Source: a virus
Virus record (IMG/VR): IMGVR_UViG_3300027244_000003
Direction: 5' to 3' (one strand)
DNA: 64,000 nucleotides
Shown: piece after piece, positions 7,585 to 53,148 of the stretch
Layout: each line of letters starts with the position of its first letter
How positions within the stretch are numbered: position 1 is the stretch's first letter
Position numbers and translations under genes: made by a program
Notes under the pieces: model-generated
Database searches by the model: none
Told to the model about the DNA's origin: nothing
The model's input: only the letters and a program-made list of their open reading frames with translations

Positions 7585-8201
7585 TAACATCAGAACAATT
7601 TCACCATCTATTTCCAAGAGCACAAGACCCAACATCATGGGCAGAGTCTATGTGTAATGTATTTCCAACATATGATATAACAACACCAAAACGTGTGGCA
7701 GCATTCCTCGCTCAGTGCGGTCATGAGTCTGGTGGTTGGACAGTGTTTGAAGAAAACCTTAACTATTCAGCACAAGGATTAAATGGTATCTTCAAGAAGT
7801 ATTTTCCTACACTTGAATCTGCACAACCTTATGCACGCAAACCAGAAATGATTGCCAATAAGATCTATGCTAATCGTATGGGTAATGGCGCACCAGAATC
7901 AGGTGATGGATATAGGTTTCGTGGTCGTGGACCAATTCAACTAACTGGTCGTGCAAACTATACAGCATTTGCTAAAGAGATGTTTGAAGACTGGCAGAAT
8001 GTGGTAGATAATCCTGACTGGGTTACTGCTGATCGTGATTTTGCTCTTATGTCAGCTATTTGGTTCTGGAATAAAAATGGACTAAACAAAGAAGCAGACG
8101 CAGGTGATCTAAAATTAATGACCAAAAAGATTAATGGTGGTTACATTGGACTTGAAGATCGCATTAAACATTATAATGAGTGTATTGATTTACTTACCTA
8201 A
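7581..8201 (+). CDS. GH19 chitinase/lysozyme-like endolysin
   Basis: FLAQCGHESGG, ENLNYS, FRGRGPIQLTGRANY, SAIWFW, INGG..GLEDR. Confidence 0.9.
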   Translation: MITSEQFHHLFPRAQDPTSWAESMCNVFPTYDITTPKRVAAFLAQCGHESGGWTVFEENLNYSAQGLNGIFKKYFPTLESAQPYARKPEMIANKIYANRMGNGAPESGDGYRFRGRGPIQLTGRANYTAFAKEMFEDWQNVVDNPDWVTADRDFALMSAIWFWNKNGLNKEADAGDLKLMTKKINGGYIGLEDRIKHYNECIDLLT

Positions 8202-8851
8202 TGCCAACATTTATACATCATGATCTTCCCAAATTGGAACGTACCGACTCTAACCAAGTTAGACTTTACAAAACCCCGTCGGGTCGAGCCTATCCAAGCA
8301 TCACCACCATTACAGGACTCCACTCAAAACAAGGAATCCTCGAATGGCGAAAAAGAGTCGGAGAAGCAGAAGCAAATAGAATCTCCAGCCAAGCAAGTAA
8401 ACGTGGAACAAAAGTCCATGGATATTGTGAATCATATCTCCGCAGTGAACTCTGTGAACCTGACACGTTCGATTCAGAGATATTTGGAAGAATTAGACCC
8501 TACCTCGAAAAAATAGATAACATACATGCATTAGAAACACCATTGTATTCTGATCATCTTGAGGTTGCTGGGACTGTTGATTGTATTGCTGAGTATGAAG
8601 GTAAACTTTCAGTTATTGATTTTAAAACTTCAAGCAAACCAAAGACTAGAGATCACATCCATGGCTATTTTATGCAGACTGCAGCATATGCTGTGGCATT
8701 CGAAGAACTAACAGGAATTCCAGTAGGAAGACTGGTTATCATAATGGGTATAGACGATAATCCGACAAAAATATTTGTCGAAAAAAGAGATGACTGGATC
8801 GATGGATTTAAAAGTCTAAGATTAGAATATAAAAGTAAACATGGAATCTAA
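8201..8851 (+). CDS. PD-(D/E)XK exonuclease (Cas4/RecB-like, T4-like phage exonuclease)
   Basis: YPSITT, RGTKVH, AGTVD, IDFKTS, Q..AYA. Confidence 0.85.
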   Translation: MPTFIHHDLPKLERTDSNQVRLYKTPSGRAYPSITTITGLHSKQGILEWRKRVGEAEANRISSQASKRGTKVHGYCESYLRSELCEPDTFDSEIFGRIRPYLEKIDNIHALETPLYSDHLEVAGTVDCIAEYEGKLSVIDFKTSSKPKTRDHIHGYFMQTAAYAVAFEELTGIPVGRLVIIMGIDDNPTKIFVEKRDDWIDGFKSLRLEYKSKHGI

Positions 8852-43589: not shown

Positions 43590-43817
43590 ATGGATTATTT
43601 GAAAGTTCAAGGACATGATGGCTTAGTTAGAGATACCTCTACTGGAGCCATTATAAATACTAATAGAACAGAATATGAAACCTATATGAGCAGAAAAAAG
43701 ATGGCTGAGCAGAGAGAGTTAGAGATTTCTCAACATACAGAAGACATAAATATATTGAAGAACGAACTGCAAGACATAAAATCTCTTATTTTACAGCTTT
43801 TGCACAAAAAAGATTGA
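43590..43817 (+). CDS. small conserved protein (coiled-coil C-terminus)
   Basis: KV.GH..LVRD..TGAIIN; usual neighbour of the VrlC-like gene. Confidence 0.7.
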   Translation: MDYLKVQGHDGLVRDTSTGAIINTNRTEYETYMSRKKMAEQRELEISQHTEDINILKNELQDIKSLILQLLHKKD

Positions 43818-43831
43818 CTAAGGAAACTTAA

Positions 43832-45037
43832 ATGCCAAATATTACATCCGCATCTATTACGCTAAGATCGACTAAGGGTAGTCCTCTTACGAATACAGAA
43901 GTCGATAATAACTTTAATAACTTAAACACAGCCATTGCGACTGGTTTAACTGCAGCCAGCTATACCGCAGCTGATGTTCTAGCCAAACTAGTTACTGTTG
44001 ATGGTGCTGGATCTGGTCTAGACGCTGACTTACTTGATGGACTGACTACTGCTTCAGCAAATACAGCATCTACTGTTGTTGTTCGTGACGCTTCTGGTAA
44101 CTTCTCTGCTGGTACTATTACTGCAGCGTTAACTGGCACAGCGACTATCGCTTCCAGCTTGAATTATACAGTGGCTATCTCTGGTGGTGGTACTGGTGCT
44201 ACTACTGCATCATCTGCTAGATCTAACTTAGGTTTGGCAATCGGCTCTGATGTTCAGGCTTATGATGGTGAACTAGCTGCGTTGGCTTCTACCACTTCTT
44301 CAGCAAATGCACTACCTTACTTTACTGGCGCAGGTACTGCTTCTACTACAACTCTTTCTGCATATGGTCGCACTCTTATCGATGATGCAGATGCATCTAC
44401 TGCTCGTGGTACACTTGGTTTAACGATTGGTTCTGATGTTCAGGCTTATGCGGCAAACTTAGCTGCACTTGCAGGTGTTTCTGGTAATGGTCTTTATATT
44501 CGTACTGGTGCAGGTACTGCTGTTAATAGATCAATTGCAGCTGGTTCTGGTATTACTGTCTCCAATGGTGATGGTGTTTCTGGTAATCCAACGATTAATG
44601 CAAACGTATTGTCTGTTCAGGGTAATACTGGTAACGTAATCGTTTCAGTTCCTGTTACTTCTGTTCAGGGTAATACTGGTGCGGTTATTGTTTCTAACAT
44701 TGCTGGTAATGCTGCCACTGCCACCAACGCACATGCTGCACATACTTCTCAGTTCTCACACCATGCTCAGTATACTCCATGGTCTCAGGTTCAAGGTCGT
44801 CCACACCACTTATCTCAATTTGCCAACGACTTAGGTAACTATGGTGGTTGGGTTCCACATAATACTAAACATACTAACCCAGATGTCAGCTCTACCATTG
44901 GGCGAAATGCTGGTGGTGTAGGAAATTGTGGTAATATCGTATCTAGAAACGTATCGAGAATGCACTTAGATACAAACCACCATTTTGATCCTCACCATCA
45001 CCACAATAATTGTACCAATTGTAACTGTAACTGTTAA
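43832..45037 (+). CDS. tail-fibre-like protein with His/Cys-rich C-terminus
   Basis: [38 protein letters not shown] fibre motifs; ends [14 protein letters not shown]. Confidence 0.8.
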
Positions 45038-45054
45038 TAGGTAATAGGAAAACT

Positions 45055-45990
45055 ATGCAATATATAACTAAACTCCAACATCGTGCTAGATATTTGGGAT
45101 ACCCAAATGCAGTATTACCAAAACATTTCGATGATTCGGTAGGTTTAACTGGTATCACTGATCCTGTAGAATACGATAGAATATCAGCTGCTGCTGACCC
45201 AACTATTTTCGAACAGATGGAATTTGATTTTAAGTGGGATTTAAATTTAACTGGTAATATTTTAAAAGCAAAATTTATTAATGTTACCGAAAATAATAGA
45301 ATTATTAATAATTTTTCTATTGATATGTCATATTTAAGTAATGCAGACGCATGTACTCTTTGGTATATTAAAGATGATATTATTTTAAGTAATATATCCA
45401 AAGTACTTGATGCAGATGCAGAAGAACTAACTATAGTAGATACAGATCTAGTTAATTCTTTCGCAAATACTTTACCAACCAAAAATTTTAATATTTATGG
45501 AACCCATGGTTTAATAGTATTTTATGTGACTAAAGATAATCCAACTCCTGCTGATATTATCACTTGTATTATTAGACCTATAGTTAGCACAGATACGGAC
45601 TATAATACAGTTTTACCAGAAATGTTAAGAAATAATATCGAAATTAAACCACTAGGTGATTATAGAGTTACTGTTACAGGTAATTTGACTAAGCATCCTG
45701 CTGATCCTACTACATTACTGATTATTGATACACTTTTACCAGAAATAACAGTGACATCTTCAACAGTATCTGGTGATATTGTTACAGTTAATTTTACAAC
45801 AGATTCGAAAATCAATAACATTTATCTGGTCCAATCTGAAGGTTATTTACCAAAATTAAAAATCCCAGTTACTAATGGAACTGGTTCTTTTAAAGTAGTC
45901 ACAACTGGTATGGATGCAGGTGATACTATTAAAGTTAAAATGGGTTTTAAATATTGGGTTAACAGAACTGAGTTCACTAAAATATTATAA
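45055..45990 (+). CDS. hypothetical protein with beta-rich (Ig-like?) C-terminal domain
   Basis: 311 aa, AGGA SD, AT-rich. Confidence 0.65.
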   Translation: MQYITKLQHRARYLGYPNAVLPKHFDDSVGLTGITDPVEYDRISAAADPTIFEQMEFDFKWDLNLTGNILKAKFINVTENNRIINNFSIDMSYLSNADACTLWYIKDDIILSNISKVLDADAEELTIVDTDLVNSFANTLPTKNFNIYGTHGLIVFYVTKDNPTPADIITCIIRPIVSTDTDYNTVLPEMLRNNIEIKPLGDYRVTVTGNLTKHPADPTTLLIIDTLLPEITVTSSTVSGDIVTVNFTTDSKINNIYLVQSEGYLPKLKIPVTNGTGSFKVVTTGMDAGDTIKVKMGFKYWVNRTEFTKIL

Positions 45991-46007
45991 AATTTATATT
46001 TTGAACA

Positions 46008-46049
46008 TATCCTATCGGAGATAAATACTCTGATAGGATAATTTATTTT
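46008..46049 (+). promoter_or_regulatory. 13-bp hairpin with late-promoter motif ATAAATA as its loop
   Basis: TATCCTATCGGAG-ATAAATA-CTCTGATAGGATA, then ATTTATTTT. Confidence 0.65.
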
Positions 46050-46059
46050 GAGGGATAGT

Positions 46060-47451
46060 ATGGCAACTTTTGAAATTTCAGCATGGAGTCCAGCAGAAAA
46101 GGTTACTAAGAAATTATTTTACAATAGTTCTCTTAGCACATTAAAGTGGGAAGATGGTTCCAATGTTATTGCAGATGTTAGAACACAACCTGATGTTGTT
46201 TCTCCTGCAAAGATTGAACATGGTAAAAAAGATTTAAAAACTGTTAAGATTCAACTAGGTCTTTCTTGTAACTTTGAATGTGATTATTGCAATCAAAGAT
46301 TCGTACCACATGCAGATGAAACTAATCCAAACGATGTAGATCCATTTGTATTGAATATGGACTCATGGTATGAAGGTGGGTCTGATGGATTTGGTAAAGA
46401 TACAAACTTCGAGTTTTGGGGTGGTGAACCATTTGTTTATTGGAAAACAATGAAGCCTCTTGCAGAAGCACTTAATAAAAAATACCCAAATGCTCGTATG
46501 TCAGTAATTACAAATGGTAGTTTATTAGACATAGAAAAAAATGAGTGGTTAGAACGATATAATTTTGGTGTGGCGGTTTCACATGATGGTCCAGGACAAC
46601 CAGTTCGTGGACCAGATCCTTTAGATGATCCAAAATCTAAAGAAGGTATTATAGATCTTTATAAAAGACTTGCACCAAAGCGTATGTTTAGTTTTAATTC
46701 TATGATTAACTCTAAGAATACTAGTCGTGCTGAGATTGAAAAATTCTTCTTCAATTTTGTTGATACTGAAATCGGTGAGAAATATAAACAGTTCTTAACA
46801 ATAGGCGAAGGTGCTTTCGTTGATGCTTATGATGAGGGTGGATTAGCAAATTCTTTAGTTGATGGTGAAGAAGATATTTCTTATAGAAATCAAGCATTAG
46901 AAGAATTGCGTGCTGGTAAGGTAACAAGATTTGATGTTATCGGGCAGAAAGTCGGTGGGTTTATTGACTCATTAGCGAATGGTGTTAGAATCGAATCACT
47001 ACCCCAAAAGTGTGGTATGGATAAATCTAATTCTATTGCTCTTGACTTAAATGGTAATGTTTTAACCTGCCAAAATGTAAGTCCAGTTTCTACAAATCCC
47101 GCAGGTATATCTCATAAACTTGGACATATATCTGATCTTTCTTCAACTAGATTAGATTCAGCTACTCATTGGAGTGATAGAAAAGAATGCCCAAACTGCC
47201 CAGTAGTACATATTTGCAAGGGTGCTTGTATGTTTCTTTCTGGTCCACTATGGGATGCTTCTTGTGATAATGCATTTAGTGATAATATCATCCCATTTTG
47301 TATCGCAATTGAAGAGATAACAGGATGTATCCCTGAGTATATCGAGGGTCCATTAAGAGAAGATCGTAAAGATATTTTCTGGTGGGTTAAGGGTAAACCA
47401 GAAAAGGTTAGAAAACCTAAAAAGATTATACCGATTGTGATGGCATCATGA
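46060..47451 (+). CDS. radical SAM enzyme with SPASM domain
   Basis: CNFECDYC (CxxxCxxC), WGGEP, ITNG, SHDG; SPASM KCG...LTC...CPNCPVVHICKGAC...SC. Confidence 0.92.
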   Translation: MATFEISAWSPAEKVTKKLFYNSSLSTLKWEDGSNVIADVRTQPDVVSPAKIEHGKKDLKTVKIQLGLSCNFECDYCNQRFVPHADETNPNDVDPFVLNMDSWYEGGSDGFGKDTNFEFWGGEPFVYWKTMKPLAEALNKKYPNARMSVITNGSLLDIEKNEWLERYNFGVAVSHDGPGQPVRGPDPLDDPKSKEGIIDLYKRLAPKRMFSFNSMINSKNTSRAEIEKFFFNFVDTEIGEKYKQFLTIGEGAFVDAYDEGGLANSLVDGEEDISYRNQALEELRAGKVTRFDVIGQKVGGFIDSLANGVRIESLPQKCGMDKSNSIALDLNGNVLTCQNVSPVSTNPAGISHKLGHISDLSSTRLDSATHWSDRKECPNCPVVHICKGACMFLSGPLWDASCDNAFSDNIIPFCIAIEEITGCIPEYIEGPLREDRKDIFWWVKGKPEKVRKPKKIIPIVMAS

Positions 47452-47762
47452 GTAGTTTCTTTAAAGGATACGTATTAGAGATTAATCAATTCCCTAGAAT
47501 TGTAGGAAACATTGGAACTATCGAACACTATACAGTCAAAGAAGTATTTGAATTTGATAGTGATACTAAAGAATATGGGTACAGAGATAGCCTAATTCCA
47601 CTACAATCTGTTATAAATAAAGATGAGATTGACCTAAATACAATTAAAGATCTTATAAATAATAAGGTGGCTTTCTTGAGAAGAACCTTAAATTTTCAGA
47701 ACCAAACACAAGTCTGGTCTTTTGATACCAGCAAATTAGGAGAACTAAAAAATGACAGTTAA
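47448..47762 (+). CDS. hypothetical protein
   Basis: 104 aa, ATGA-coupled to the radical SAM gene. Confidence 0.6.
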   Translation: MSSFFKGYVLEINQFPRIVGNIGTIEHYTVKEVFEFDSDTKEYGYRDSLIPLQSVINKDEIDLNTIKDLINNKVAFLRRTLNFQNQTQVWSFDTSKLGELKNDS

Positions 47763-48699
47763 AAATGTAAAATGGGTTATCGCTCATGAGCCTATTGGTT
47801 TATTTTTGAAGGTAGCCGAAGCATTTTCCAAAGAAGTTAACGAAAGAACTAATGGGAAATTTAATGTTGAGATTCTCTCATTGACTGAGTATTCTCAAAA
47901 GTACAATTTCGGTAAACAACTAACAAAACGATCTATGATGGATTTAGTTGGTTCTGGACAAGTTGAGATGGGTCACATCTATACAACTTGGCTCGCAGAT
48001 ATCAATCCAGATCTTAATGTTTTAGATTTACCATTCTTGTTTAGAGATCACGATCATGCTGATGCTATTCTTGATGGTCCAATCGGTGCTGATTTGTTAG
48101 CTGGTGTTGAGAAGAACTCTCAGATCAAAGCAATGGCATTTACATATTCTGGTGGATATCGTGTGGTTCCTGCTAATTTTAAAGCAGATACGATTGAATC
48201 TTGGAAAGGTAAAAAAGTTAGAATTAGTTCTAGCCCAGTTGCCCAAGCAACTTTCGAAACACTCGGTGCAATTGCAAATCCTAATATCGAATTAGAACAA
48301 ATGAATGAACAAGCCGATCGTGGAAACATCGATGCAGGTGAATCAACTTATGTTCGCATTTTCCCACTACAGCAAAACAAATCTTTCAAGTATGTTAATG
48401 ATACTGCACACAGTTTGTTCTTGACTTCTATTATTGTCAATGAGGCTTTCTTCAATCAGTTTGACGATGAAACTAAACAGATCATGTCTGAAGCAGCATT
48501 TAATGCAGCAAAGGCAGAACGTAAAGAATCTGTTGCAGATATTCCAAATATTTTAGATCAATGTAAAGCTGAAAAAGTTGAAGTTATCTCTATGTCTAAA
48601 TCTGAACAGAAAAAGATGCAAGATCTATTGACCCCTCTCCATGATAGATTTGAGGCTTCCTTTAGTGATGGATTAGTCAAGAGCATTAAGTCTCATTAA
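47752..48699 (+). CDS. TRAP transporter substrate-binding protein (DctP family), no signal peptide
   Basis: V.ERTNG...VEI, G.VEM, LDLPFLFRD.DHA...LDG..G, G.R, KG.KVR, LGA. Confidence 0.85.
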   Translation: MTVKNVKWVIAHEPIGLFLKVAEAFSKEVNERTNGKFNVEILSLTEYSQKYNFGKQLTKRSMMDLVGSGQVEMGHIYTTWLADINPDLNVLDLPFLFRDHDHADAILDGPIGADLLAGVEKNSQIKAMAFTYSGGYRVVPANFKADTIESWKGKKVRISSSPVAQATFETLGAIANPNIELEQMNEQADRGNIDAGESTYVRIFPLQQNKSFKYVNDTAHSLFLTSIIVNEAFFNQFDDETKQIMSEAAFNAAKAERKESVADIPNILDQCKAEKVEVISMSKSEQKKMQDLLTPLHDRFEASFSDGLVKSIKSH

Positions 48700-48720
48700 T
48701 CTAAACTAAATATATTATAC

Positions 48721-48750
48721 AGGGGATGTTTAGCATCCCCTTTTTATTTT
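48721..48750 (+). terminator. intrinsic terminator
   Basis: AGGGGATG/CATCCCCT stem plus TTTTATTTT. Confidence 0.75.
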
Positions 48751-48762
48751 ATGGAAAATATA

Positions 48763-49806
48763 ATGAAACCTAGAATTTTATATTATAACAAAAAACAAGC
48801 ACCTTTCTTAATTAATAGAGATGCTTCTTCAATGTCACCATTTTTATCTAAAACGTATACATATAAAATTTTTAATTCATATGAGACACTTGGATTAAAT
48901 AAACATAATATGGTATATGATAGATCTGGTTCTGTACCACATTATTTAAATATTGCAGAAGATGCCCACCCAATACCAGAGGTGGGTATTTCTTTTAATA
49001 AATCATTTTATCAAGCATGTGAAGAACGTGCAAAGCACCTCCTAAGTCTTAATAAAGTAGTACATGTACTTTGGTCTGGTGGAATTGATAGCACTTTTGT
49101 TTTATTCATGTTAAAGAAATTCTCCAACGATCCCGATCAGGTTAGAGTTTGGGGTACATTAAATTCTATCTTAGAATCTGGTGATATGTTTGATAGAAGA
49201 TTAAAGAATGAATTTCCTTACACTATCCTAGAACCAACAGATAATGAGTTTTCCTTTAATGTAAATGAATGTATTTTTGTCAGTGGGATGGGTGGGAATC
49301 AGTTATTTGGACCAACAGATGATATGTTCGCCACTGGTGGAACTGCTATGTTCCACCACACTCTTGGTACTCCAGAAACTATATACGAATCTTACGAGAA
49401 TAACATAGACCCTAAACTATTAGAATTTCTGGATCCAATGATAAAGAATTCTTATAGGAAAATTGAAACAGTCGCCGATCTAAGATGGTATTGTATTTTT
49501 AATCTAGACTGGTACACTGGCTTATATGAACATAGAACAATGCTTCAGATAGAAAAGACTAAAAAGATGCATGCGTTTTTTGATTCTGACGATCTACAAC
49601 GCTGGGCTATGACTACTAAAGAACCATTCACCAAAGTTCGTGGGAATGCCAATACACATCGTTGGCAAATGAGGCAAATTCTGTCCGAAGAATTCGGAGA
49701 ACGAGATTATGCTTTAAACAAATCAAAGAAAATATCAAACCTAAACGTCCAACGTCCTCAGTGGCTATTTTTACTAGACGATTTCCATAATGTCCTGATC
49801 GACTAA
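48763..49806 (+). CDS. asparagine-synthetase-like ATP pyrophosphatase (adenine nucleotide alpha hydrolase)
   Basis: PP-loop WSGGIDST and SGMGGNQLFG (cf. SGEGxDELFG); start could be 48751. Confidence 0.7.
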   Translation: MKPRILYYNKKQAPFLINRDASSMSPFLSKTYTYKIFNSYETLGLNKHNMVYDRSGSVPHYLNIAEDAHPIPEVGISFNKSFYQACEERAKHLLSLNKVVHVLWSGGIDSTFVLFMLKKFSNDPDQVRVWGTLNSILESGDMFDRRLKNEFPYTILEPTDNEFSFNVNECIFVSGMGGNQLFGPTDDMFATGGTAMFHHTLGTPETIYESYENNIDPKLLEFLDPMIKNSYRKIETVADLRWYCIFNLDWYTGLYEHRTMLQIEKTKKMHAFFDSDDLQRWAMTTKEPFTKVRGNANTHRWQMRQILSEEFGERDYALNKSKKISNLNVQRPQWLFLLDDFHNVLID

Positions 49807-49868: not shown

Positions 49869-50204
49869 ATGGCGACTGTTAGTAATCTATTCGTTGACGC
49901 TGGGGCTAACTACAGCAATATAATTACTGTATCCGCATCCAATGGTCAAGCACTCGATTTGACTGGATATACTGTGGCTTCTCAAATGAGAAAGTCATAT
50001 CAGTCCAGCACATCCTATAATTTCACATCAAGTATATACTTAGCAGCTTCTGGTAAGGTTAGACTTCAATTAACAGATGTACAATCTGCTAGTATTCCAG
50101 CTGGACGCTGGCTTTATGATGTAGAGATAACTTCTCCATCTGGTACAAAAACCAGAGTAGTCGAGGGAGTTGTCACAGTTAACCCACAAATTACACAGAT
50201 TTAA
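49869..50204 (+). CDS. virion structural protein (BppU-like Ig fold)
   Basis: DLTGYT..SQMRKSY, GR..YDVEI, RVVEG.V.V.P; TATAAATA at 49832. Confidence 0.7.
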   Translation: MATVSNLFVDAGANYSNIITVSASNGQALDLTGYTVASQMRKSYQSSTSYNFTSSIYLAASGKVRLQLTDVQSASIPAGRWLYDVEITSPSGTKTRVVEGVVTVNPQITQI

Positions 50205-50206
50205 TT

Positions 50207-50458
50207 ATGACAGATACAATAGCAATTGTTACCCCAGATGAAGCGTTAACTGTTGCAGTTTCCGAAGGTGTTCTTACACTTTCACAATCAAACTTAGCTG
50301 CACCAGCTGTAGTCGAATCTATGTCAAACATCGCCGATGTCGATGTTACTACGAATGGTAAGTTAAATGGATCGCTTTTAGTATACAGAACAATAACAAA
50401 TAAATGGACTGCTTCTACTACGCTTGATGCGCAGAATTTAGAAGGTGGCGAATTTTAA
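50207..50458 (+). CDS. small fibre-associated protein
   Basis: DVD....NGSLLVY......W, C-terminal EGGEF. Confidence 0.6.
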   Translation: MTDTIAIVTPDEALTVAVSEGVLTLSQSNLAAPAVVESMSNIADVDVTTNGKLNGSLLVYRTITNKWTASTTLDAQNLEGGEF

Positions 50459-50472
50459 TCGGAGAATAAAAG

Positions 50473-53148
50473 ATGGCATCAATAATTAGAATAAAACGCT
50501 CATCGGTTTCAGGGAATCCAGCTACACTGGGTGCTGGTGAATTAGCGTATTCAGCACTTAATGGGGCTGGTGGTAATCGTCTATACATTGGTATGGGCAC
50601 AGAGACCTCAGGTAATGCTGCTAACCACTTAGTAATCGGTGGTACTTACTACACTGGTTTAATTGACGCATCAGTTGCTGGCACATTAACTACTAGTGCA
50701 TCCTCAATTCCAGTTCTTTCTGCAACTGGTACGATCGATACTTGGAAAGTTGGTAATACTCAATTAACTGGTAACACATTATCATCTACTGACACCAATG
50801 GTAACATTAACCTTACACCAAATGGTACTGGTAAATTAGTTCTTAATAATCCGTACATTAATGGTACGACTGATACTCTTGCTGAGTATATCTTTGATAC
50901 AGTTGGTGGAGCAGTAACTGCTGGTACAGGTATTACTGTAACACCAAGTGATGTTGGTAATACTACTACCATTTCAATAACTAATACTGCGGTAACTCCT
51001 GGAACTTATGGCTCTGCTACTTCGATTCCAACATTCACTGTTAATCAACAAGGTCAATTAACTGCTGCAGGTAGTGCTTCTTTAGCAACTACTTTAAATA
51101 TCGCTGGTGATACTGGTACGTCAGCATTTGCTCTACTAACAGACACCATGACTTTTGTTGGTGGTACTGGTATTACTTCTGTTGTCGCAAAAGTTGGTGC
51201 TGCTACTAGTGTAACTTTTGATATTGATTCAACTGTTACTACTTTAACTGGTACTCAGACACTTACTAATAAGACTTTAACTAGCCCAATAATCAATGGT
51301 GCAACCATTGGTGCTACAGGTGCTACATTTAATGGTTCTACTTCTGGTACAATTACTGTACTTGCATCAGCTGTTGCTGGAACAAATTCATTAACTCTAC
51401 CAGCTGCAACTGATACTTTAGTCGGTAAAGCAACAACTGATACACTTACTAACAAGTCTATCAACTTAGCAAACAATACACTAACTACTACTTCTGCTCA
51501 GTTAGCAACTGCTATCTCTGATGAGACTGGTACTGGTGTTGTTGTATTCTCTAATACTCCAACTCTTGTTACTCCTATTCTTGGTGTTGCTTCTGCTACT
51601 TCTATTAATAAAGTAGCAATTACTGCTCCTGCCACTGGTTCTACTTTAACTATTGCTGATGGTAAAACCTTTACTGCAAGCAATACTTTAACTCTAACTG
51701 GTACTGATACTTCATCTATTGCTTTCGGTGCTGGTGGTACTGTTGCTTATGTAGCAAACAAACTAAGCGTATTTGCTGCCACTACTTCTGCTGAACTTGC
51801 TGGCGTTATCTCTGATGAGACTGGTACTGGTGTTCTAGTATTCTCTAACAGCCCAACTCTAGTTACTCCAACTCTTGGTGCTGCTTTAGCAACTAGCATT
51901 ACTGCCACTTCTGGCAATATGACTGTTAATGCTGCAGCTGGTAATAACAGTGTAAACTTAGTTGCAACTGGTACTGGTACTGTTGACGTTGCCAACAAGC
52001 GTATTACTTCTGTTGCTGAGCCTACTCAGTCTAGCGATGCTGCTACTAAGAACTACGTTGATGCTGTTAAGACTGGTCTAAAAGTTAAAGATGCTGTTCG
52101 TGCTGCAACTACTGCAAACCTAGCTGCAACATATGCTAACGGATCTTCTGGTGTTGGTGCTACATTAACTAACTCTGGATCTCAAGCTGCCTTTACAATT
52201 GATTCGATCGTATTAACTGCTGGACAACGAGTTCTTGTTAAAGATCAATCAACTGCCTTCCAAAATGGTATCTATACAGTAACAACTGTTGGTACTGTTT
52301 CTACAAACTGGGTTCTTACTCGTGCTATTGACAATGATAGTAATGTCACTGTTCTAGAAGTTGAAGGTGGAGATTTCTGTTTCGTTCAAGAAGGTACAGT
52401 AAACGCTGATAATGGTTTCGTTGTAACTACTAATGGATCTATTACAATTGGTACTACTGGAATTGACTATGTTCAATTCTCTGGTGCTGGACAAGTTATC
52501 GCTGGTGATGGTTTAACTAAGACTGGCAATACTCTAAACGCAGTTGGTACTAATAACCGTATCTCTATTTCTGCTGATGCGATTGACATCTCTTCAAGTT
52601 ATGTTGGTCAAGCAACTATTACTACTCTTGGTACTATCGCAACTGGTACTTGGCAAGGTACTATCGTTGGTTCAACTTATGGTGGTACTGGTGTTAATAA
52701 TGGATCTAGCACTATTACACTTGGTGGTAGTTTAAGCACTATCGGTGCGTTTACTACTGCGTTAACTGCAACTGCTAATACTACATTAACACTACCTGTT
52801 ACTGGCACTCTTGCTACACTAGCTGGTACTGAAACATTTACTAACAAAACTTTAACTGCTCCAGTTATCGCAACTATTGTTAATACTGGTACTTTAACAC
52901 TACCAACTTCAACTGATACTTTAGTTGGTCGTGCCACTACTGATACACTTACTAATAAAACAATCACTGGTGCGATAATCACTACTGGTAGTATTAACAA
53001 TACTCCAATCGGTGCCACTACTACAAACACTGGTGCGTTCACTACATTAAATGCAAGTGGTACTATTACTGCTCAAGGTAATATTACTGGTGCTGGTGCT
53101 GGTACTTCTACTCTCGATGGATTCAATATCGATGGTGGTACGTACTAA
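50473..53148 (+). CDS. tail-fibre-like protein
   Basis: IRIKRS...P..L..GELAY, repeated TLTNKT, DAATK.YVD, RVLVKDQ....QNGIY, DGGTY end. Confidence 0.8.
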   Translation: MASIIRIKRSSVSGNPATLGAGELAYSALNGAGGNRLYIGMGTETSGNAANHLVIGGTYYTGLIDASVAGTLTTSASSIPVLSATGTIDTWKVGNTQLTGNTLSSTDTNGNINLTPNGTGKLVLNNPYINGTTDTLAEYIFDTVGGAVTAGTGITVTPSDVGNTTTISITNTAVTPGTYGSATSIPTFTVNQQGQLTAAGSASLATTLNIAGDTGTSAFALLTDTMTFVGGTGITSVVAKVGAATSVTFDIDSTVTTLTGTQTLTNKTLTSPIINGATIGATGATFNGSTSGTITVLASAVAGTNSLTLPAATDTLVGKATTDTLTNKSINLANNTLTTTSAQLATAISDETGTGVVVFSNTPTLVTPILGVASATSINKVAITAPATGSTLTIADGKTFTASNTLTLTGTDTSSIAFGAGGTVAYVANKLSVFAATTSAELAGVISDETGTGVLVFSNSPTLVTPTLGAALATSITATSGNMTVNAAAGNNSVNLVATGTGTVDVANKRITSVAEPTQSSDAATKNYVDAVKTGLKVKDAVRAATTANLAATYANGSSGVGATLTNSGSQAAFTIDSIVLTAGQRVLVKDQSTAFQNGIYTVTTVGTVSTNWVLTRAIDNDSNVTVLEVEGGDFCFVQEGTVNADNGFVVTTNGSITIGTTGIDYVQFSGAGQVIAGDGLTKTGNTLNAVGTNNRISISADAIDISSSYVGQATITTLGTIATGTWQGTIVGSTYGGTGVNNGSSTITLGGSLSTIGAFTTALTATANTTLTLPVTGTLATLAGTETFTNKTLTAPVIATIVNTGTLTLPTSTDTLVGRATTDTLTNKTITGAIITTGSINNTPIGATTTNTGAFTTLNASGTITAQGNITGAGAGTSTLDGFNIDGGTY

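Follow-up and report, generated by a model that had tools for sequence, protein, structure and literature searches.

The closest described relatives of the system treated here are the ranthipeptide/sactipeptide maturases CteB (SCIFF; PDB 5WGG/5WHY) and PapB (freyrasin), thioether-forming enzymes in which a radical S-adenosylmethionine (SAM) core is combined with a seven-Cys SPASM domain and a Cys-rich substrate is encoded next to the enzyme. CteB has, besides its seven SPASM Cys residues, an open cluster site that binds the Cys thiolate of the substrate. The anaerobic sulphatase-maturating enzyme anSME (PDB 4K36-4K39), whose substrate is a peptidyl Cys in an entire protein, recognises the motif C/S-x-P/A-x-R and has eight cluster-ligating Cys residues in its SPASM region. 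PapB joins Cys to a carbon that neighbours a carboxylate, and the C-terminal residue can serve as acceptor too (PMC12373016), and QhpD, the maturase of quinohemoprotein amine dehydrogenase (TIGR03906), forms Cys-Asp/Glu thioethers in a protein subunit and not in a released peptide (PMC7327761). Here we analyse a stretch of 64,000 nucleotides of viral DNA (IMG/VR record IMGVR_UViG_3300027244_000003; in the following, the window), which at 43832-47451 encodes a tail-fibre-type protein with a C-terminal Asn-Cys repeat, a 311-residue partner protein and a radical SAM/SPASM enzyme. The phage probably modifies its own fibre tip chemically: the reading that we favour, though without great certainty, is that the dedicated enzyme of this fibre-tip cassette acts post-translationally on the Cys residues of the tail, most likely by introducing thioether cross-links.

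The window derives from an uncultured T4-like myovirus, whose 2172-residue VrlC-type structural protein is 35-39% identical to its counterparts in Synechococcus phage BUCT-ZZ01 and Pelagibacter myophages. Between the VrlC-type gene and further fibre genes lie six same-strand open reading frames (ORFs), present as a first, sequence-only reading of this DNA had listed them: the fibre, the 311-residue protein, the radical SAM enzyme, a 104-residue protein, DctP and a PP-loop protein. No match among cultured phages was obtained by megablast with the gene block or by tblastn with the fibre.

The fibre gene (43832-45037, plus strand) codes for 401 residues and matches tail-fibre families of the PHROG database with E-values from 2e-13 to 6e-18. 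Residues 1-270 form a shaft common to sister phages, while residues from about 322 to 401 make up a variable tip region. There are five Cys residues in the whole protein (366, 394, 397, 399 and 401), all within the last 36 residues and each preceded by Asn; the C-terminal sequence is NNCTNCNCNC. The terminal Asn-Cys run from N393 to C401 (NCTNCNCNC; 45008-45034, plus strand), which we propose as the substrate motif, is invariant in the aligned tails, and a second Asn-Cys pair occurs at 365-366 (GNCGN). The C-terminus of the fibre had been singled out as the sole Cys-rich periodic motif. No other genuine ORF of at least 60 residues in the window has such a tail; the only others with one are two spurious overlapping ORFs near 20.5 kb. 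Among 21 aligned T4-like fibre tails, the terminal NC..NCNC is the only invariant part, and a conserved LSQFxNNLGNYG motif is located about 55 residues upstream of the terminal run. The initial description of the fibre as 'Cys/His-tipped' has to be narrowed accordingly: the NC run is a constant feature, but the His run is restricted to this sub-lineage and is swapped for Tyr-rich or unrelated sequence in relatives.

Upon comparison of 137 distinct tails encoded near radical SAM genes, Cys was the last residue in 117, and the last Cys of the run was the exact end of the protein in 95, so that the C-terminal position is a conserved feature. The Cys run of gp028 in Achromobacter phage JWF, CNCDCNCNCSC, lies inside the protein, its last Cys being the very residue at which a Hint domain (PF05203) begins; N-terminal self-cleavage by the Hint domain would therefore place the run at the C-terminus. 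About 160-175 residues follow an internal Cys run in Achromobacter phage 2-1, in a locus of Burkholderia paludis MSh1 (L198) and in locus L158.

The linkage between enzyme and tail was analysed in three collections. IMG/VR contained 38 loci with the radical SAM gene, 34 of which were testable in that at least 1.7 kb of upstream sequence was available, the other four being cut by the contig end. All 34 have, 0.7-3.9 kb upstream, a same-strand ORF whose C-terminus is (NC)n or closely similar. Among cultured phages, only Ralstonia phage RSP15 and the Achromobacter phages JWF and 2-1 have the enzyme (41-47% identity); the gene order is fibre, unknown, radical SAM in each, the tail-bearing ORF is co-oriented and within the same 0.7-3.9 kb, and the fibre of RSP15 ends in NTNCQCGN. 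A search of bacterial genomes gave 231 relatives, mostly from freshwater Burkholderiales such as Limnohabitans, and a co-oriented protein with a Cys-x-Cys tail, for example NCNCNCACDCCC, was found upstream of the enzyme gene in 60 of the 62 testable (prophage) loci. In a divergent siphovirus-type prophage, the tail CSYCSYCTCACSDCSC is followed by a GFRFY-type partner and two radical SAM genes.

For a phyletic comparison, sister phages were collected by means of a conserved 111-residue neighbour gene, which yielded 18 loci with a complete interval from the VrlC-type gene to this neighbour. Eleven contain both enzyme and tail, seven contain neither, and none is discordant (Fisher's exact test, P ~3e-5, with relatedness ignored). 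Enzyme and tail are tightly co-inherited, in hundreds of phages and prophages overall, and have been gained or lost together among sister phages. The co-occurrence of radical SAM homologues with NC-repeat fibres, proposed as a check in the sequence-only reading, was thus found in IMG/VR, in the cultured phages and in bacteria as well as among the sister phages. Given that three independent collections each show an almost complete linkage, we reject chance adjacency of enzyme and tail.

In the reverse direction, IMG/VR was scanned for DNA encoding NCNCNC followed by a stop codon. This gave 103 stretches; chance alone would, on a rough estimate, produce only a few. Among those with an in-frame ORF of at least 75 residues, about 54 loci have the radical SAM gene downstream and about 13 are too short to judge. 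Where the carrier is a small protein of 127-176 residues, the enzyme gene is 14-230 nt away.

The enzyme itself (46060-47451, plus strand) is 463 residues long. Its ATG at 46060 is located behind a GAGGGA ribosome-binding site, and a TTG at 46048 is also open. The protein matches phrog_1802 with an E-value of 5e-62. The full SPASM motif attributed to it previously is borne out by TIGR04085 (34 bits; cut-off 27) and by the conservation of its Cys residues: the radical SAM cluster motif CX3CX2C (C70/C74/C77) and the seven Cys residues of the SPASM motif CX13GX4C...CX2CX5CX3C...C (C318, C337, C377, C380, C386, C390 and C402) do not vary among 30 homologues with identities as low as 36%. The score for PF04055 (29.2 bits) is slightly below the cut-off of 29.5; membership of the radical SAM superfamily is nonetheless evident from motif, phrog_1802 and fold. 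Homologues with E-values of 1e-30 or better form 526 clusters at 50% identity.

In an AlphaFold model (predicted local distance difference test score, pLDDT, 89.7), the enzyme is about equally near in fold to anSME (4K39), the top match, and to the thioether synthase CteB (5WHY), both with E-values of ~2e-12, followed by ChlB, TigE, SkfB and SuiB. The top NCBIfam matches, PapB, QhpD and SCIFF, are thioether maturases, and none comes near its cut-off: 50.6 versus 340 bits for PapB (NF047865), the best match, 42.3 versus 453 bits for QhpD (TIGR03906; E 3.7e-11, third-best) and 29.7 versus 425 bits for the SCIFF maturase CteB (TIGR03974). As this distance holds for every named NCBIfam maturase family, we regard phrog_1802 as a family of its own. 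Further differences to CteB and PapB are the lack of a full RiPP (ribosomally made, post-translationally modified peptide) recognition element, no N-terminal winged helix being seen in the model but three beta-strands only (residues 3-30), with no helices ahead of the core, and the lack of a peptidase or exporter. The presumed substrate also differs, being a virion fibre of 400 residues or a protein of 80-180 residues with Cys at every second position of the extreme C-terminus. From QhpD, the system is distinguished by the acceptors, which are Asp and Glu in QhpD, and by the setting, a bacterial periplasmic enzyme rather than a phage structural protein.

The similarity to anSME, which is the top structural match and aligns over the full length, together with the nearness of ChlB, TigE and SuiB in fold, raises the question of a different radical chemistry on the tail, such as Cys-to-formylglycine conversion, epimerisation or formation of a C-C cross-link, by which a reactive or protease-resistant tip would arise. 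We consider this unlikely: the target motif of anSME does not occur in the tail, its family model (TIGR03942) gives 40.8 bits where 349 are required, and the invariant SPASM Cys residues number seven, as in CteB, and not eight.

Some distant members of the enzyme family are found in unusual surroundings. Locus L379 (877-5608) has three tandem radical SAM genes, the last of which codes for an 800-residue two-module radical SAM/SPASM-like fusion (P0280); no Cys-periodic tail was found in this 7-kb contig. For P0280 and for another divergent member (P0307), the contigs are too short or have no tail within reach. In locus L042 (1841-12886 of a 167-kb viral contig), about 12 tandem paralogous ORFs of 240-315 residues, several with Cys-rich C-termini, surround a weak (28%) radical SAM-like match.

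The sister phages without the enzyme show what takes the place of the tail. Six of the seven have a homologous fibre gene at the same place. The first 255-270 residues of these fibres are 36-73% identical to the window fibre, whereas the end is different and Cys-free; the genes downstream of the fibre differ as well. Since the shaft is kept while the end and the downstream genes differ, the tail, the 311-residue protein and the radical SAM enzyme can be regarded as one exchangeable fibre-tip module. In two of these phages (L327 and L374) the fibre ends in a Peptidase_S74 intramolecular chaperone, and in a third (L358) S74 is found on a neighbouring fibre-like ORF. The module fills the slot that belongs to a self-cleaving trimerisation chaperone in relatives. 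Peptidase_S74 chaperones are self-removing modules, as is the Hint domain of JWF gp028; they differ from the cassette in that no relation in sequence or fold exists and that no separate enzyme is needed. A functional analogy, in trimer nucleation or locking, may be considered. Downstream of the S74-tipped fibre, cassette-less sisters contain three tandem Gly-rich paralogues of ~230-250 residues (L358, 6516-8673; L331, 6432-8621; L334, 5434-7638), which end in G(S/C)(V/I)IVEE(I/F)YG(L/F/Y/M)(V/S/W) and possibly constitute a different set of tip or adhesin proteins.

Tail-bearing proteins are not always fibres, as 57 of the 137 carriers are shorter than 200 residues. No short precursor ORF had been noticed nearby in the sequence-only reading, but relatives do have short carriers (81-176 residues). 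Some of these have very long Asn/Cys-rich C-terminal halves, with ~24 Cys per 75 residues in the 134-residue carrier of locus L053. Being located directly upstream of the radical SAM gene, as in RiPP clusters, the short Asn/Cys-rich carriers could be taken as precursors of a released peptide (a bacteriocin, metallophore or signal) instead of virion parts. We regard this as very improbable. A RiPP system is characterized by a short precursor and a peptide that is released or exported, and no peptidase or transporter gene is present in the ORF listings of the block or of ~200 cassettes, nor was a leader peptidase or exporter found in any cassette examined. In addition, the tail in the window is fused to a 400-residue fibre shaft, an S74 fibre tip and the cassette are interchangeable, and some of the small carriers match tail-fibre PHROGs. 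The layout which appears most RiPP-like is that of locus L040 (2799-8371), where an S74-tipped fibre is followed by three tandem ORFs of 86-87 residues ending in NCNCNC, two GFKYF-type partner paralogues, three 2-oxoglutarate (2OG)-Fe(II) oxygenases and, last, the radical SAM enzyme.

The third component of the cassette, the beta-rich 311-residue partner (45055-45990, plus strand), has a conserved C-terminal domain ending in GFKYW. This domain (...VKMGFKYW) matches the C-terminus of the homologous ORF047 of RSP15 (E 4e-7). No match to a Pfam or PHROG family and no usable match in the ESM Atlas was found for the protein. A GF[KR]x[FWY]-type ORF flanks the radical SAM gene in 69 of 116 non-redundant loci, compared with none of 799 background ORFs. 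The partner is the fastest-evolving gene of the block, with 24-77% identity compared with 58-98% for the enzyme in the same loci, and the first ~200 residues are its most variable stretch. This pattern of divergence suggests a host-facing or tip-matched protein rather than a housekeeping helper. In JWF-type loci its place is taken by an unrelated helical protein; gp029, which occupies the same position in JWF, has no detectable relation to the 311-residue partner.

Taken together, we propose that the fibre shaft bears a C-terminal Asn-Cys repeat whose Cys residues would be modified by the radical SAM/SPASM enzyme after translation in the infected cell. Thioethers may be formed from the Cys sulphur to a carbon of a neighbouring residue, either the beta-carbon of Asn or the C-terminal residue, and the links could be within one chain or between the three fibre chains. 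The outcome would be a reduction-proof covalent staple at the distal end of the fibre, with the 311-residue protein as a putative tip partner that could present the substrate, assist assembly or be an adhesin. We infer from the linkage data that the enzyme works on the tail, and the type of chemistry and the structural role are likewise deduced. We rate thioether formation as the most likely chemistry because the nearest named families are thioether maturases, because there are seven SPASM Cys residues, and because PapB and QhpD provide precedents. An inter-chain or tip-locking role would be attractive, as the cassette replaces the S74 trimerisation chaperone.

Co-folding of the enzyme with its presumed substrate, another check suggested at the outset, was carried out with the last 80 residues of the fibre, SAM and three clusters, and gave weak support. 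The score was 0.42, with 0.00 for the best control; one of the three runs scored 0.01. Agreement between runs was at least 36% of contacts and the pLDDT of the partner chain at least 31. Of 80 solved complexes 58 attained the mark applied, as did two of 110 mismatches.

Several observations weigh against our proposal. The co-folding result is a weak pass, and at a score of 0.60 or below the mark was reached by only seven of the 80 solved complexes and by both of the mismatches. The fold cannot separate thioether synthases from anSME-type oxidases or from cyclophane (ChlB) and cyclopropyl (TigE) synthases. Incorporation of the window fibre into the virion is suggested by homology and position only. 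Although Asn precedes Cys in 73% of cases in the 137 tails, it is not universal: the residue between the Cys residues is Asn in about 73%, Ala in about 8% and Asp in about 8%, and Ser, Tyr or Thr occur at this position in the divergent prophage member. The general chemistry can therefore not be one of Cys-Asn links; what all tails share is the periodic Cys, with Asn strongly preferred in this branch. Finally, the reverse test revealed 11 loci, belonging to three protein families, which end in NCNCNC but lack the radical SAM gene, one of the families being DUF6712. One such locus is on a contig rated 100% complete, and positive controls were run. NCNCNC tails can thus exist unmodified.

These last findings are also what speaks for a metal clamp, in which the Cys-x-Cys tails of the three chains would bind metal in a metallothionein-like or Fe-S-like thiolate cluster and hold the trimer together, the radical SAM enzyme having another role such as cluster delivery or the modification of a different residue. 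Periodic Cys-x-Cys is a classical thiolate-cluster motif, Asn is dispensable while Cys is not, NCNCNC-ended proteins occur without the enzyme, and a His-rich stretch has been added in this sub-lineage. A comparable spacing is found at the tip of the T4 fibre protein gp37, where, in His-x-His iron sites, every other residue close to the distal end of the trimeric fibre is of a ligand type; the present case differs in having Cys instead of His, in the location of the run at the very C-terminus and in the linked, dedicated radical SAM enzyme. Yet a metal clamp leaves the near-perfect co-inheritance of tail and enzyme unexplained, we know of no metal-delivery role for SPASM enzymes, and the His stretch is not conserved. 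Hence we see metal binding in place of enzymatic cross-linking as an outside candidate.

As to the proteins ending in NCNCNC without the enzyme, the DUF6712 family comprises 203-residue proteins (L088, 11273-11881; also L055, L073, L100, L112 and L135) with the ending DGC(L/F)(N/S)C(A/G)NPYV(N/K)G(S/E)SNCNCNC and no radical SAM gene nearby. A second family without the enzyme (~185-193 residues; L052, L083 and L131) ends in ELCGLENCNCNC. Short NC runs of this kind are perhaps metal sites.

Full-text literature searches gave no description of the pairing of a fibre Asn-Cys tail with a radical SAM enzyme, nor was a description found of enzymatic post-translational cross-linking of a virion host-recognition fibre. 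A radical SAM maturase of a cyanophage has been listed merely as an 'antibiotic synthesis gene' (PMC12801897). The present work adds that sister phages have either both enzyme and tail or neither, that the cassette is swapped with the S74 tip, how the Hint fusion can be read, that the three downstream genes are separable and what fold the PP-loop protein has (both described below), that the partner evolves rapidly, and that Asn is not present in all tails. If enzymatic stapling of the tip is true, radical chemistry of the natural-product type serves phages in building or locking the portion of the virion that contacts the host. Fibre assembly, stability and possibly host range would then have a new determinant, and a compact pair of C-terminal tag and enzyme would be available for protein stapling. 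The cassette is directly testable because it is carried by the cultured phages RSP15, JWF and 2-1.

Downstream of the cassette, a 104-residue protein, DctP and the PP-loop protein are encoded. The 104-residue protein (47448-47762, plus strand), which travels with the other two genes, has no Pfam or PHROG family match; its ORF overlaps both the stop codon of the radical SAM gene (ATGA) and the start of DctP. The DctP gene (47752-48699, plus strand) encodes a TRAP (tripartite ATP-independent periplasmic) solute-binding protein, as annotated before, with 156 bits against a cut-off of 23.4 for PF03480 and 116 against 50 for NF037995. The alignment with PDB 4pdh (E 2e-24), in which KKVRISS is paired with LKMRTME, begins with residue 23 opposite residue 21 of the crystallized chain, and the protein retains the carboxylate-clamp Arg. 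As its start matches that of mature periplasmic homologues, the protein has no signal peptide; ORFs for the membrane subunits DctQ and DctM are also lacking in the block, which thus does not encode a TRAP transporter system.

The PP-loop protein (48751-49806, plus strand; 351 residues, pLDDT 90.6) contains SGGIDS, which is nearly invariant among homologues. Residues 11-351 resemble beta-lactam synthetase, TsnB9, ASNS, AsnB and carbapenam synthetase (Z 12-13.5, 190-250 aligned residues), while generic PP-loop enzymes (GMP synthetase, LarE) are ~3 Z units lower (Z 9-10). The 'Asn-synthetase-like' label given earlier is thereby upheld at the level of the fold, on which the placement is based as no PDB sequence match exists; for PF00733 (asparagine synthetase B) the score is 12.7 bits against a cut-off of 21. 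The alignment covers the synthetase domain only (chain residues ~142-488), and the protein has no glutaminase domain.

The three genes are often interleaved with the cassette in variable order. Most lineages lack them, however; they are missing from close relatives which keep fibre, partner and radical SAM enzyme (L009, L010 and L031) and from nearly all bacterial loci, while ~13 loci have the trio with no radical SAM gene or NC tail within 7 kb, the trio-only contigs being ~10% complete. The trio is therefore separable from the cassette, and we regard it as an optional extra, with an uncertain connection to the tail; it may have some action there, though we would not expect it. Other lineages (L040 and L037) carry 2OG-Fe(II) oxygenases instead of the trio; no connection could be made between these enzymes of L040 and ORF046 of RSP15. 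In locus L248 (5768-8732), from phage contigs without the radical SAM gene, a trio with a first protein of ~94 residues is found between nrdA/nrdB/glutaredoxin (ribonucleotide reductase) genes and genes for IscU-like (8051-8437) and IscA-like (8406-8732) Fe-S assembly proteins. This setting may hint at a metabolic or Fe-S-related role.

A more elaborate use of the trio can be envisaged, in which the terminal carboxylate of the tail would itself be used, being activated by the Asn-synthetase-type adenylating enzyme with a cytoplasmic, carboxylate-binding DctP in T4-like phages or by a Hint thioester in JWF-like phages. Together with the thioethers, this would close the trimeric tip or ligate the partner, resulting in an enzyme-built covalent receptor-binding tip in place of the self-cleaving S74 chaperone of the sisters. 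We hold this to be decidedly unlikely.

The six genes were also considered as a single operon or system. We reject this on account of two internal terminator-like hairpins together with the separability of the trio. One hairpin is located between the partner and radical SAM genes (46008-46040, plus strand; a 13-pair stem followed by a T-run), the other between the DctP and PP-loop genes (48721-48741, plus strand), and they likely divide the six genes into three units. Of the four late-promoter motifs reported in the sequence-only reading, only that at 47654 is exact, those at 43746, 46021 and 48706 being inexact. The exact T4-type late promoter TATAAATA occurs in the window only at 43652, 47612, 47654 and 49832; it is not enriched, since 7.9 occurrences are expected by chance in 64 kb. 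On the 3' side of the block (49869-53148), an ORF of 111 residues (phrog_1084/3304, 'L-shaped tail fibre assembly'-like) and one of 83 residues are followed by an 891-residue fibre. This fibre terminates in IDGGTY, an ending which was found again in many related loci.

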